Below, in pieces: positions 1,794 through 4,721 of a DNA stretch of 64,000 bases. Below the pieces are notes generated by a model. It searched no databases, was not told the DNA's origin, and was given only the letters and a program-made list of their open reading frames with translations. The translations under genes were made by a program, and so were the position numbers. The stretch is from Methanomassiliicoccaceae archaeon (GTDB taxonomy: Archaea > Thermoplasmatota > Thermoplasmata > Methanomassiliicoccales > Methanomassiliicoccaceae), in NCBI GenBank assembly GCA_963728405.1, contig CAVSJV010000017.1, forward strand, positions 224,001 to 288,000, given 5' to 3'. Each line of letters opens with the position of its first letter. Positions within the stretch are counted from its first letter, which is position 1.

Positions 1794-3404
1794 TCAGATC
1801 TGCAGGTAATCCCGGTTGCCGAACTTGCTCAGTTCGACCGAGCGGACCTCTTGGAAACCTTTGACCGCCGCCATCTCCTTGACAACGGCCTCGCTGACCG
1901 GGTTATCCACGGAAACGAGCATGAGGGCCTTTCCACCCTTCTGGTCCCGACCCAGGCCCATCCGGGCGATGTTAATGCCCTTGCTGCCCAGCATGGTCCC
2001 GATGCGTCCGATTATGCCTGGCATGTCGGCATGCACGGACAACAGGAAATCGCCTTCCAGGGGCAGGTCCAGGTCATACTCATCGATGCCCAGAAGCCTC
2101 GGCTCAGAGCCGGGGAAGGCCGTACCGCGGACCTCTCTCTTGACCCCGTCCGATTGCAAGGACACCGAGATCATGTTAACATAGCGCTTGGATTCCTCGA
2201 CCTTGACCTCGACGATCTGGATGCCCTTTTCCTTAGCGATCAGCTCGGCGTTGATGATGTTCGGCTGCTCGCCCGAAAGGTTCGACAGTACGCCCATGAG
2301 GGCAGATACTGTCAGCATCTTGGTGTCCACCGTCGCCAGGTCCCCGTAGACGGTCACCTGGACCTTGGCCACCGGGGCGTCGGTCAGTTGTACCGCGAAC
2401 GCACCGAGGAGCTCGGCGACGGATATGAACGGTACCACCTTGGGGTCCATGCCCCTCACGGGGGCATTGACCGCGTTGGAGATACGCTTATCGAGCAGGA
2501 ACATCTTGACATGCTCGGCCATCTCCACCGATACCTTTTCCTGCGCTTCCTTGGTCGAGGCGCCCAGGTGAGGCGTCACTACGATATTGTCAAGGGTCAG
2601 GAGCTTGGAACCGGTAGGCGGCTCCTTCTCAAAGACGTCCAGCGCCGCGCCGGCAATCGTCTTGTTCTTCAATGCCTCGTAGAGCGCCTCCTCATCGATC
2701 AGCTCGCCCCGGGCAACGTTCAGTATGATGGCGTTGGGCTTCATCTTGGCGATGAGCTCCTTGCTGATCAGGTGATGAGTGCTGGGTGTGAGGGCGGCAT
2801 GGATGGTGATGACGTCAGCTTCTTCGATGACCTGCTCCAGCGGCATGAGGCGGACGCCCAACTTCACCGCGACCTCGGGCGATATGTAGGGATCGTAACC
2901 GACCAGCTTCATCTGGAAGGACTTGGCGCGCCTGGCCACTTCGCCGCCCACCCGGCCGATACCCACTATGCCCAGGGTCTTGCCGTACAGTTCGAAACCG
3001 GTGAACTTGGACCGCTTCCATTCGCCTTTCTTGAGGGATGCGTCGGCCCATACGACATTGCGGGCAAGGGACATCATCATAGCCATGGTGTGCTCGGCGG
3101 CGGAGATGATGTTGGCGGAGGGCGTGTTCATGACCAGGATGCCCCGGCGGGTAGCGGCCTTGACATCGACATTGTCCACACCGACGCCGGCCCGGCCGAC
3201 GACCTTGAGATTCTTCCCGGCCTCGATCACCTCGGCGGTGACCTTGGTGCCCGATCTTATGATCAGCGCATCATAGTCCCCGATGATCTTCATCAGCTCC
3301 TCGTGGGGGATGTTGGGCCGGATGTCCACTTGGACCTGACCGCCCCCCCTCAGCATCTTCAGGCCCTCTTCCGAGAGCTCGTCGGTAACCAGCAGTTTGA
3401 TCAT
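1794..3404 (-). CDS. serA: D-3-phosphoglycerate dehydrogenase
   Basis: GRAGVGVDN, GIGRVG, TPHLGAST, C-terminal ASB and ACT domains. Confidence 0.95.
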   Translation of the reverse strand: MIKLLVTDELSEEGLKMLRGGGQVQVDIRPNIPHEELMKIIGDYDALIIRSGTKVTAEVIEAGKNLKVVGRAGVGVDNVDVKAATRRGILVMNTPSANIISAAEHTMAMMMSLARNVVWADASLKKGEWKRSKFTGFELYGKTLGIVGIGRVGGEVARRAKSFQMKLVGYDPYISPEVAVKLGVRLMPLEQVIEEADVITIHAALTPSTHHLISKELIAKMKPNAIILNVARGELIDEEALYEALKNKTIAGAALDVFEKEPPTGSKLLTLDNIVVTPHLGASTKEAQEKVSVEMAEHVKMFLLDKRISNAVNAPVRGMDPKVVPFISVAELLGAFAVQLTDAPVAKVQVTVYGDLATVDTKMLTVSALMGVLSNLSGEQPNIINAELIAKEKGIQIVEVKVEESKRYVNMISVSLQSDGVKREVRGTAFPGSEPRLLGIDEYDLDLPLEGDFLLSVHADMPGIIGRIGTMLGSKGINIARMGLGRDQKGGKALMLVSVDNPVSEAVVKEMAAVKGFQEVRSVELSKFGNRDYLQI

Positions 3405-4471
3405 TTCATCGTCTCCAGGACCTCGTCCATGTTCCTCAACAGGCCGCGGACCTCCTCGACCGTCAGGTCGCCCATGTGGCCCACCCGGAAGGTCGCGTCC
3501 TTGATGTCCCCGTAGCCGTTGGAGATCTCATAGCCGCGCTCCTTGAGGCCCTTGTTGAGCATGCTAAAGTCAATGTCGCCCCGGTTTATCACTGTGATGG
3601 TATCGGAGAGATAGCCCGGCTCGGCAAACACCCCATGGCGCTTCCGGGCCCAGGACCGCACCAGCTCGGCCATCTCCTGGTGGCGGCGGTATCGGGCGGC
3701 CATGCCTTCCTTAAGGATCCTTTCCAGTTGGAAGTCGAGGGCGTACATCAGGGACACCGGGGGGGTGGTGAGAGAGTAGTTCTTGTCGGCCATCTTCTTC
3801 ATCTGGATCAGGTCAAAGTAGTAGCCCTTGTTCGGCACGGTCTTGGCCTTCTCCAGCAGACGGTCGGAGCAGCAGATGATCGCTATCCCCGGGGGGAGCG
3901 CCAAAGCCTTCTGCGTGCCGAATATCAGGGCGTCCAGGTCCAGCTCCTTGATCTTGAGGTCCGAACCATAGATGGCGGTGACGCCGTCCACGAACATCAA
4001 TGGGTCGTGGTCCTTGCGGACCGCTCTGACCAGGTCCTTCACCGGGTTCAGCACGCCAGTGGAACTTTCGTTCGCGACCACGGCCACAGCCTCGATGTCA
4101 TCGGTCAGCTGGCCCTCCAGATCCGCCGGCTTTACCGCCTTGCCCCAGGCCCCGTTGAGCTTCTTGACCTCCTTGCCGTTCTCGGTACCGATGCCCTGCC
4201 AGCGGTCTCCGAATGAGCCGTTGGAGATGCCCAGCATCTTGCTCTTGACACCATTCCGTACGCACGCCTCGAGAAGTCCAGAGGCGGAGGCCGGGGACAT
4301 CATGATGTGCATGTCGGTGTCCAGGGTCTTGTGGAGCTTCTCCACAATGCGTTCCTGGAGCTGCTCGTACTCTTTGCTCCGATGAGTGATCATCGGCCTG
4401 GTCATGGAATCGAGGACCTCTTTGCGGACCTCGACCGGACCTACGGTGAACAGTGTGTGATTCACAGACAT
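3401..4471 (-). CDS. Class V PLP aminotransferase (alanine-glyoxylate/serine-pyruvate family; probable phosphoserine aminotransferase role)
   Basis: LFTVGPV, NESSTG, GTQKALALPPG, FRVGHMG; ATGA overlap with serA. Confidence 0.9.
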   Translation of the reverse strand: MSVNHTLFTVGPVEVRKEVLDSMTRPMITHRSKEYEQLQERIVEKLHKTLDTDMHIMMSPASASGLLEACVRNGVKSKMLGISNGSFGDRWQGIGTENGKEVKKLNGAWGKAVKPADLEGQLTDDIEAVAVVANESSTGVLNPVKDLVRAVRKDHDPLMFVDGVTAIYGSDLKIKELDLDALIFGTQKALALPPGIAIICCSDRLLEKAKTVPNKGYYFDLIQMKKMADKNYSLTTPPVSLMYALDFQLERILKEGMAARYRRHQEMAELVRSWARKRHGVFAEPGYLSDTITVINRGDIDFSMLNKGLKERGYEISNGYGDIKDATFRVGHMGDLTVEEVRGLLRNMDEVLETMK

Positions 4472-4493
4472 CCCCCGAAAATCTCCCGGCGCT

Positions 4494-4589
4494 TCAGGCG
4501 CGAACAGGGCAGACAGGGGACATCCGATAACGTCCTCCACATCCGCATCCCGATCCGCATCCGTCGGCGGCGCTCGTCATGTCCAGCAT
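4494..4589 (-). CDS. Candidate 31-aa leader peptide MLDMTSAADGCGSGCGCGGRYRMSPVCPVRA
   Basis: Manually translated uORF between the TATA box and the aminotransferase start; translation not shown. Confidence 0.45.
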   Translation of the reverse strand: MLDMTSAADGCGSGCGCGGRYRMSPVCPVRA

Positions 4590-4681
4590 GCGCTCTGCCC
4601 TTGATAATGCCAGATAAGGAAAATCCTGTATTGAGGGCATGACAGCATGTGGCATGTTGATTTCCGGTATCATGAAGATAT

Positions 4682-4721
4682 GAATATAAACTTTCCTATG
4701 CCATGCTGGCAGGCATAGGAA
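4682..4721 (-). promoter_or_regulatory. BRE/TATA promoter of serine operon with adjacent inverted repeat
   Basis: Minus strand GGAAAG-TTTATAT; inverted repeat TTCCTATGCC-N9-GGCATAGGAA at 4693-4721. Confidence 0.55.

Follow-up and report, generated by a model that had tools for sequence, protein, structure and literature searches.

Does the serine biosynthesis operon of a Methanomassiliicoccaceae archaeon begin with a leader peptide through which the ribosome could sense the amino acids that the operon helps to supply? The question is raised by a short upstream open reading frame (uORF), rich in Gly, Cys and Ser codons, that lies ahead of the genes for a class-V aminotransferase and D-3-phosphoglycerate dehydrogenase on the minus strand of the 64,000-nt stretch of DNA analysed here (the window, to which all feature coordinates refer; Table 1). 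Leader-peptide attenuation is a textbook bacterial mechanism, but to our knowledge none has been described in Archaea, and we know of no serine/glycine-family leader peptide from bacteria; a full-text literature search, with subscription journals largely outside its scope, found no archaeal leader-peptide attenuator. Comparison of this leader (the serine leader) among the Methanomassiliicoccales, combined with RNA folding, leads us to propose that the leader of the serC(class V)-serA operon functions as a ribosome-mediated translational attenuator, a reading to which a probability of about 0.5 is assigned.

Table 1. Features of the serine leader and the operon behind it, in coordinates of the 64,000-nt window.
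Feature	Coordinates	Strand	Remarks
TATA box TTTATATT with purine-rich element just upstream	4683..4690	-	Same box 33-37 nt before the uORF ATG in 26/26 loci
Helix P1, 5' strand, including the uORF start codon	4641..4660	-	Minimum-free-energy folds; predicted
Conserved uORF, 53 codons plus TGA	4494..4655	-	43/43 leaders read, 47-64 codons; probably leaderless
Helix P1, 3' strand, GCAUGCUGGACAUGA region	4574..4595	-	Predicted
Ten-codon run G C G S G C G C G G, candidate sensor codons	4533..4562	-	All six Gly codons are GGA
Segment 1, GGAGGACGUU, Shine-Dalgarno-like 5' arm of hairpin 1	4529..4538	-	Candidate anti-sequestering strand
Segment 2, CGGAUGUCCCCUG, uORF codons +3 to +7 past the run	4514..4526	-	Can pair with segment 1 or, alternatively, with the Shine-Dalgarno/start region
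Hairpin 2	4481..4514	-	Per-sequence folds of 43 leaders; predicted
Segment 3, Shine-Dalgarno GGGGG (4476..4472), spacer and first start-codon base	4465..4477	-	Partner of segment 2
Class-V aminotransferase gene, phosphoserine-aminotransferase type	3401..4465	-	Pfam Aminotran_5, E 1.1e-23
serA, D-3-phosphoglycerate dehydrogenase with ACT domain	1794..3404	-	Pfam matches

The identity of the two genes follows from their domains. The serA product matched 2-Hacid_dh_C (E 1.1e-64), PGDH_inter (E 3.4e-29) and ACT (E 1.6e-08), while the role of the class-V aminotransferase in phosphoserine formation is one that we presume from the literature on the Methanococcales. The ATG of serA and the stop codon of the aminotransferase gene overlap by 4 nt, and orthologues of the aminotransferase were found in 41 of 41 related genomes. 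At the position of its GUG codon (4465..4463), the 43 loci compared have GTG (35), TTG (4) or ATG (4), one of them needing a 3-nt offset, and a Shine-Dalgarno sequence, GGGGG or GGAGG, is found 6 nt upstream of this position in the leaders read. The GUG is probably the true start, because both the start-codon position and its Shine-Dalgarno sequence are kept, whereas the ATG at 4471, 6 nt further upstream, occurs in family f1 alone. The gene on the other side of the serine leader encodes a CMD-family protein, unrelated according to Pfam.

The uORF proved to be longer than it had appeared to a sequence-only reading of the window, which had begun it at ATG 4589..4587 and translated it as MLDMTSAADGCGSGCGCGGRYRMSPVCPVRA*. 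That ATG is internal and in frame, and opens the 3' part of a conserved 53-codon uORF that starts at ATG 4655..4653, 35 nt after the start of the TATA box, and ends with the TGA at 4496..4494. The same reading had placed a TATA box near 4684-4690, in agreement with the box found at 4690..4683, and had counted 22 nt from the stop codon to the operon; this distance holds for the ATG at 4471, but not for the likely start at GUG 4465..4463. In 26 of the first 30 loci fetched from relatives, 21-31 nt separate the end of the uORF with its run from the site of the ATG of family f1. The TATA box is the presumed promoter of a leader-serC-serA transcript. In Archaea, transcription starts some 25-30 nt from the TATA box; because the ATG at 33-37 nt after the box (in all 26 motif-bearing loci, with a spacing common to all 43 leaders from six families of the Methanomassiliicoccales) fits this distance, the uORF is probably leaderless, with the mRNA starting a few bases upstream of ATG 4655. 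Small shares of three metatranscriptome runs, searched as contigs with unreadable ends, yielded one bridge between gene and leader, a contig from a relative (about 94% identical) that spans the gene and the leader up to 4628; as contig evidence it suggests, if weakly, that transcription does not start below 4589, in keeping with the earlier reading.

The expectation that relatives would have such a uORF was borne out in the 26 of 30 loci mentioned and then in all 43 leaders read, each of which has the same frame, run and end point. The start codon was kept in 43 of 43 leaders, with its neighbours and its predicted pairing partner varying. In mononucleotide shuffles the same frame stays open in 3-24% of cases per lineage. 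The distance from the ATG to the last Gly codon falls into 11 length classes between 108 and 150 nt, all of them multiples of three, a result that follows in part from the choice of frame. In family f1, few stops interrupt one further frame of the leader (15 in 26 leaders), so that it is chiefly the other families that support the frame argument. A frameshift fusion of the uORF to the aminotransferase was tried as an explanation and rejected: the gene frame is open across the run in f1 only, and outside f1 it provides 7-14 extra codons. In six groups of close relatives, substitutions in the uORF were spread over codon positions 1, 2 and 3 as 91, 103 and 97, and those in the first 60 codons of the aminotransferase gene as 41, 21 and 112. 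Likewise, 155 of 190 variable codon columns of the uORF change the amino acid and 35 are all-synonymous; for the first 60 codons of the aminotransferase, 86 variable columns are synonymous and 57 non-synonymous. By these comparative measures, the uORF peptide is not under purifying selection. As its start, frame and end are nonetheless kept, it would thus be the act of translation that is conserved rather than a protein.

The run that had drawn attention to the locus is real: the ten codons of 4562..4533 encode Gly, Cys or Ser only, with GGA for every Gly. Across the 43 leaders, the run is composed of 55% Gly, 18% Ser and 10% Cys (83% together), and GGA accounts for 204 of its 235 Gly codons (87%). 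Within the N-terminal portion of these uORFs, 23 of 158 Gly codons (15%) are GGA, as are 17% of those in long ORFs of the window's genome, where GGA is the rarest Gly codon (genome-wide codon figures refer to this genome alone) and where tRNA-Gly with the anticodons UCC, GCC and CCC is encoded by one gene each. The Cys codons of the run are TGT in 26 instances versus TGC in 18, with TGT at 22% genome-wide, and the Ser codons are enriched in TCT (18 of 79 versus 8% genome-wide). The GGA triplets, two to seven per leader, always stand 0 or 3 nt apart and in frame with the conserved ATG and stop, so that their conservation in frame, as proposed earlier, was upheld; in one genus (L089-L091) the repeats are nearly lost and the uORF and the switch are kept. 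A G-S-G-x-G-x-G-G core within an open frame was retained in 43 of 43 leaders. Its Ser codon varies among TCG, TCT, TCC and TCA, and the residue at the x positions of the Gly-x-Gly run changes between Cys, Arg, Tyr, Ser, Trp, Ala and Gln; Cys, put forward by the sequence-only reading as a sensor codon, is therefore not conserved as such.

Because the GGA spacing is restricted to 0 or 3 nt, the third base of the Ser codon varies and the x codons turn over, the pattern favours codons read by a ribosome over a repeat bound by a protein. The GGA triplets are, at the same time, the most conserved bases of the leader, with spacers and pairing partner varying, and their invariance could equally be compatible with recognition of the RNA itself. 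Gly and Cys are both made from Ser, and the codons of the run match the products of the pathway to which serA and the class-V aminotransferase belong, as is characteristic of leader peptides. A link to the Cys codons through phosphoserine-dependent synthesis of Cys-tRNA was considered and dismissed, since the genome has a CysRS (552 bits) and no SepRS above the cut-off.

Folding of the leader indicates what translation of the uORF may control. RNAalifold, applied to the whole leader, returned one consensus helix, which joins uORF codons +3 to +6, counted from the end of the run, to the Shine-Dalgarno sequence, spacer and start of the aminotransferase gene (segment 2 with segment 3). In an alignment of 44 rows, 98.7% of 390 cells of this helix are paired and compensatory changes are found at four of nine pairs (41 cells), these counts being favoured by a model-based alignment fitted to this very helix and including one row that is a reverse-strand match arising from self-complementarity. 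Its covariation score was 0.476 versus 0.340 in shuffles, with none of 500 reaching it, and slid controls gave 0.02-0.20. Folded leader by leader, segment 2 and the start site form a duplex of 11-17 bp (mean -23.9 kcal/mol), which in many cases takes in the start codon. A helix that hides the aminotransferase gene's ribosome-binding site is thus strongly supported by comparative evidence. Segment 2 also has an alternative partner: the GGAGGA at the end of the run resembles the Shine-Dalgarno region and is able to pair with it as hairpin 1, a fold predicted for each of the leaders at -7.7 to -18.7 kcal/mol (mean -13.3). The pairing register of hairpin 1 differs between families, and its covariation was not above controls. 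The run ends two to three codons 5' of segment 2, and hence the GGA codons do not lie on the hiding strand; Ser codons do: 42 of 43 leaders have one among the pairing codons of segment 2, and Ser makes up 22% of the uORF tail.

Between segments 2 and 3 the predicted folds place hairpin 2, the outer stem of which joins the CU-rich uORF tail to a purine-rich stretch just before the Shine-Dalgarno sequence and the inner stem of which is GCGC:GCGC, with the stop codon of the uORF in or at the apical loop in folds of the 43 leaders. Its stem sequences differ between families with pairing kept, as judged by eye, and the predicted closed state is consequently one long hairpin with the last twelve or so uORF codons as its 5' strand. 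Further upstream, a stretch of 90-130 nt that separates the AUG from the run is predicted to form a domain closed by a long-range helix, P1, of the type CAUGCC:GGCAUG, the pairings of which change together between families (again by eye); 25 of 43 leaders, among them 16 of the 18 in family f1, have the AUG of the uORF fully paired in their predicted fold. The notion that a stalled ribosome holds P1 open for more loading was discarded, as its geometry fits f1 only and the run lies about 40 nt further away elsewhere. In stability, the window's leader as a whole does not stand out from its shuffles, of which 25 of 200 equal it (z -1.15). In the alignments, no hairpin followed by a T-run is conserved as an intrinsic terminator; after hairpin 2 there is a short mixed tract of 3-6 U/C, missing in L003-L006. 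Because the conserved helix hides a translation start and no T-run terminator is conserved, control by translation is more likely than control by transcription termination. On this point the earlier account of an attenuator leader is amended. A search of Rfam 15 placed the leader in no family, the sole match being SNORA55 (E 3.2; 13.8 bits versus a gathering score of 45).

With a covariance model of the 3' core, the element was detected in 52 of 151 genomes sampled from the Methanomassiliicoccales. The leader itself is present in 45 of the 151, comprising 42 matches with E 6.2e-9 or better and three weaker ones that were recognized on reading as degenerate true copies; one weak match was read as unrelated. 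By family, matches were obtained in 18 of 23 genomes of f1, 1 of 1 of f2, 12 of 47 of f3, 4 of 4 of f4, 1 of 1 of f5 and 10 of 10 of f6, together with 5 of 64 of f7, all weak. Each genome carries a single strong copy, directly before the aminotransferase gene in every case checked, and in the window's own genome a simple GGA-period pattern occurs at four places with the full architecture only at the serine leader. The four of the first 30 fetched loci in which the uORF with its run was not found belong to one genus (g3), whose aminotransferase gene is preceded by another leader, likewise conserved and with no match in Rfam. A class-wide sample of 150 other genomes gave 24-28-bit matches only, and seven loci from groups lacking the element have short upstream regions with no such uORF.

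A second leader of the same kind was found outside the window in the same genome, ahead of ilvB. Its uORF, MPSGATKSSIVSSVLSVVVVLIR (G000 contig C17, 76602-76673), opens 32 nt past a TATA box and stops 48 nt short of ilvB, and in the window's genome its run uses GTA, TTG and ATT, each of which accounts for about 10% of its codon family. In all 30 loci fetched from relatives, a short uORF ends 47-58 nt before ilvB in a run of Val, Ile and Leu codons (for example, with the endings VVVVLIR, SVVLTS, AVVIIIS, VGIIIR and KVIVVL), and a conserved hairpin directly follows its stop. A model of this leader matched 65 of the 151 genomes (22 of 23 in f1, 29 of 47 in f3, 4 of 4 in f4, 8 of 10 in f6 and 0 of 64 in f7) and had no match outside the order in the class sample. 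Genome-wide scans for leader peptides gave 46 and 89 raw candidates, most of which look like noise; the Trp threshold was too lax, and only the serine and ilvB leaders were convincing. A textbook-like Val/Ile/Leu leader before ilvB supports the general idea of leader peptides in these organisms. That at least serC-serA and ilvB together form a ribosome-read regulon of the Methanomassiliicoccales, each preceded by a leaderless leader peptide of rare cognate codons, is advanced more tentatively than the attenuator itself, at slightly worse than even odds.

The mechanism proposed for the serine leader builds on the conservation of uORF start, frame and end, the rare-codon bias and the covariation of segment 2 with the start site, all of which emerge from the comparison of leaders; from these we infer a transcription start, translation of the uORF, stalling of ribosomes and a sign of response. 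The mRNA would start a few bases before AUG 4655, and a ribosome loading at its 5' end would translate the 53-codon uORF, the amino acid sequence of which would be irrelevant. The last twelve or so codons, comprising segment 2 and the Ser/Pro-rich tail, would serve as the 5' strand of the long hairpin, the 3' strand of which would hold the Shine-Dalgarno sequence, spacer and GUG start and the apical loop the uORF stop. In ribosome-free RNA, the start site of the aminotransferase gene would thus be hidden, and a ribosome on segment 2 or on the tail would expose it. Just 5' of this hairpin, rare GGA codons alternate with Ser, Cys and other codons, and the GGAGGA at the end of the run would pair with segment 2 as the alternative. 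The speed of the ribosome over the run would be set by charged tRNA-Gly(UCC), tRNA-Ser and tRNA-Cys; it would determine where the ribosome dwells and thereby how often the downstream start is open.

The sign of this control was explored with a model in which a 28-nt ribosome mask was placed at each A-site position of 26 leaders under equilibrium folding. Accessibility of the Shine-Dalgarno sequence was 0.10 in free RNA and 0.01-0.07 with the A site on the run, and it rose to 0.24-0.35 only when the A site was at least two codons past the run. The predicted cost of freeing the start site averages 9.8 kcal/mol in free RNA versus 18.5 with the run masked, an increase of about 9 kcal/mol seen in 42 of 43 leaders. 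At equilibrium, therefore, occupancy of the run is predicted to close the start site and a ribosome on the Ser-rich 3' part to open it. The idea of ribosome-mediated sensing of serine-family amino acids gains from the conserved uORF, the rare-codon bias and the ilvB sister leader, but the sign expected of a stall on the run itself comes out opposite in this model. On 29 ilvB leaders, the same model was flat at 0.42-0.48 with no dependence on ribosome position, and since their sign is known a priori it is not trusted to give the sign. Our best guess is that the operon is switched on by ribosomes stalling at the Ser codons in segment 2 and in the tail, and that hairpin 1 stays intact when a ribosome stalls at the first codons of the run. 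The GGA run may possibly act as a kinetic sensor, leaving hairpin 1 intact upon a stall at its first GGA or Ser codons; it may equally be a brake or a site for another factor. Protection of the mRNA from 5'-to-3' decay by stalled ribosomes is a further possibility, by analogy with ermC. Given the Ser codons in segment 2 and the tail, limitation of serine would switch the operon on in the manner reported for the mycobacterial polycysteine short ORFs (Canestrari et al., bioRxiv 10.1101/834739).

Three other explanations of the serine leader have been weighed. The GGA repeats, possibly with the 5' domain, could be bound by a protein or metabolite when serine-family amino acids are plentiful, turning the operon off in the manner of TRAP or a riboswitch; binding would free the start-hiding hairpin from competition by the purine strand, and the uORF would provide basal unzipping. 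This would account for the exceptional conservation of the GGA triplets next to variable spacers and a variable partner, for the roughly 9 kcal/mol added on masking the run in 42 of 43 leaders, with a physiologically sensible sign, and for a conserved domain of 90-130 nt 5' of the run that would be superfluous for a plain leader peptide. We nevertheless consider it unlikely, as the Rfam search yielded nothing beyond the match at E 3.2 and 13.8 bits, and no homologue of TRAP or HutP (PF02081, PF09021) was found in the genome, which is 93.75% complete. A protein site, moreover, needs neither spacing of 0 or 3 nt nor a frame shared with a conserved ATG and stop, nor would it be expected to vary from two to seven repeats and to be nearly lost in the genus of L089-L091 with the uORF and switch kept, and the bias to rare codons extends to Cys, Ser and the codons of the ilvB leader.

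Somewhat less probable still is a constitutive coupling of translation in which nothing is sensed, the ribosomes on the uORF simply unzipping the hairpin and the GGA run being its in-frame purine strand. The geometry suits such unzipping, as the hiding hairpin takes its 5' strand from the 3' part of the uORF, whose stop falls in the apical loop; free RNA is predicted to have a closed start site, with opening costing 9.8 kcal/mol on average, and hairpin 1 lacks covariation above controls. Left unexplained, however, would be the choice of rare codons with GGA at 87%, the turnover of Ser and Cys codons with their enrichment kept, the position of the run before an operon that makes the precursor of exactly these amino acids, and the parallel Val/Ile/Leu run before ilvB. 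A third possibility, that the product of the uORF is a small functional protein containing a Gly-rich motif, finds its only footing in the open frame and the G-S-G-x-G-x-G-G core of all 43 leaders and was rejected on the substitution pattern; with no codon periodicity, 155 of 190 variable columns changing the amino acid, no Pfam family for the peptide, a length of 47-64 residues and N- and C-terminal parts that are unalignable between families, it is given almost no credence. Translational attenuation by a ribosome reading the uORF thus remains the preferred reading.

If true, the serine leader would be the first case of leader-peptide attenuation in Archaea, acting on translation initiation rather than on a terminator, and among the glycine tRNAs it would respond to one isoacceptor only, tRNA-Gly(UCC), alongside tRNA-Ser and tRNA-Cys. 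The type of mechanism is known from bacteria; what would be new are the domain of life, the amino acid family, the run of a single rare codon and the architecture. The conserved leader, its covarying helix and the ilvB sister make it directly testable whether archaeal ribosomes serve as amino acid sensors, a question of long standing. The serine leader would also offer a case of one rare codon selected as a sensor, and natural parts for the control of genes in methanogens, namely a leaderless start, a decoy Shine-Dalgarno sequence and a sequestering helix.

The classical leader-peptide transcription attenuators of bacteria are those of trp, his, ilvGMEDA and ilvBN. The serine leader resembles them in having a short leader ORF with consecutive codons that specify what the controlled pathway makes and in its mutually exclusive RNA pairings, here predicted, and the sister leader before ilvB has the same kind of Val/Ile/Leu run as the bacterial ilv attenuators. 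Unlike these, the serine leader is without a conserved hairpin-plus-T-run, and its conserved helix hides a translation start; as far as we know, hairpin-dependent terminators are not used by archaeal RNA polymerase. In the arrangement of triplet repeats 5' of a strand that pairs with the repeats or with the Shine-Dalgarno sequence, it is similar to the TRAP-controlled trpE leader of Bacillus subtilis, in which occupancy of the repeats likewise favours the hairpin that hides the Shine-Dalgarno sequence, as the model predicts here. TRAP, however, recognizes 9-11 (G/U)AG triplets, and repeats of the TRAP/HutP type are NAG triplets with spacers of 2-4 nt, whereas those of the serine leader are two to seven GGA triplets strictly 0 or 3 nt apart and framed by an ORF, in a genome without a TRAP homologue. 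The proposed remodelling by a ribosome on a leader ORF of a hairpin that hides the next Shine-Dalgarno sequence is as in the attenuation of ermC and cat and in secM-secA, but there arrest is caused by a drug or the nascent peptide, such that the peptide sequence matters, while that of the serine leader evolves freely.

The closest parallel is with the leaderless polycysteine short ORFs of mycobacteria, which are bacterial attenuators studied by experiment (Canestrari et al., bioRxiv 10.1101/834739), the serine leader being known here from sequence and folding models; it is from the same paper that the term ribulon, for a regulon read by ribosomes, is taken. The two have in common a leaderless ORF (predicted here) as the first cistron of an amino acid biosynthesis operon, codons cognate to the pathway, and control at translation (here inferred) rather than at a terminator. 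The serine leader differs in its archaeal host, in a run that alternates Gly, Ser and Cys and relies on one rare codon, GGA, and in the position of its main run 5' of the anti-Shine-Dalgarno strand, on which only Ser codons lie. To the arrangement described for mycobacteria it would add a decoy Shine-Dalgarno sequence (segment 1), a stop codon placed in the loop and a structured 5' domain.

The aminotransferase of the aminotransferase-serA operon probably starts at GUG 4465 rather than at ATG 4471. The position of this GUG holds GTG, TTG or ATG in 43 of the 43 loci, with a Shine-Dalgarno sequence 6 nt to its 5' side; the ATG is found in one family only, where it adjoins the Shine-Dalgarno sequence. 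At the other end of the gene, the aminotransferase stop codon and the serA ATG overlap as ATGA, an arrangement that points to translational coupling between the two enzymes, in which case serA would also come under any control exerted at the first start site. Within the rice-paddy metatranscriptome run X2, a contig of 358 nt that matches window positions 4272-4628 with 21 differences carries the leader and the 5' end of the gene in a single piece, with DNA carry-over in the library possible.

Positions of the features discussed
Feature	Location	Strand	Remark
Aminotransferase start region	window 4463-4471	-	GUG 4465 vs ATG 4471
Aminotransferase-serA junction	window 3401-3404	-	ATGA overlap
Reverse-strand match of the covariance model	locus L030:1433-1507	-	serine leader of a relative
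Second leaderless-type uORF, MPSGATKSSIVSSVLSVVVVLIR	own genome (G000), contig C17 76602-76673 = locus L107:303-374	+	outside window
Met-rich short ORF	own genome (G000), contig C17, offset 355167 on reverse complement	-	outside window

A second uORF of the leaderless type lies upstream of ilvB, which encodes the acetolactate synthase large subunit, at a distance of 48 nt. At the ilvB loci of relatives (L108-L137), a uORF with a Val/Ile/Leu end and a hairpin immediately 3' of its stop codon was present in every case (30/30). A model of this leader matched 65 of the 151 genomes sampled from the order Methanomassiliicoccales, and beyond the order it gave 0 matches in the class-wide sample. Separately, the relaxed uORF scan returned a candidate Met-rich short ORF (MKNMAMMLPM...) located 85 nt 5' of an unannotated ORF of 425 aa.

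Methanomassiliicoccales decode UAG as pyrrolysine. This codon is the uORF stop in most ilvB leaders (L108-L123, L127-L134 and L136) and in the serine leaders of family f4 (L026, L029 and L030); in this family, read-through of the UAG would end at a UGA that overlaps GUG, the start codon of the aminotransferase. The opposite strand of the L030 leader was also scored by the covariance model of the serine leader core (19.6 bits), owing to the long self-complementarity between segment 2, the uORF codons following the Gly run, and the start region.

The Gly-run leader is absent from genus g3 (L019-L022), where another conserved leader lies approximately 200 nt 5' of the aminotransferase start. It comprises nested inverted repeats, with AAGCGCU...AGCGCUU enclosing a GACUAUAU...AUAUAG hairpin. 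Compared with the families of Rfam, it returned 0 matches at E up to 1, and it may represent another regulatory RNA of the same aminotransferase-serA operon.
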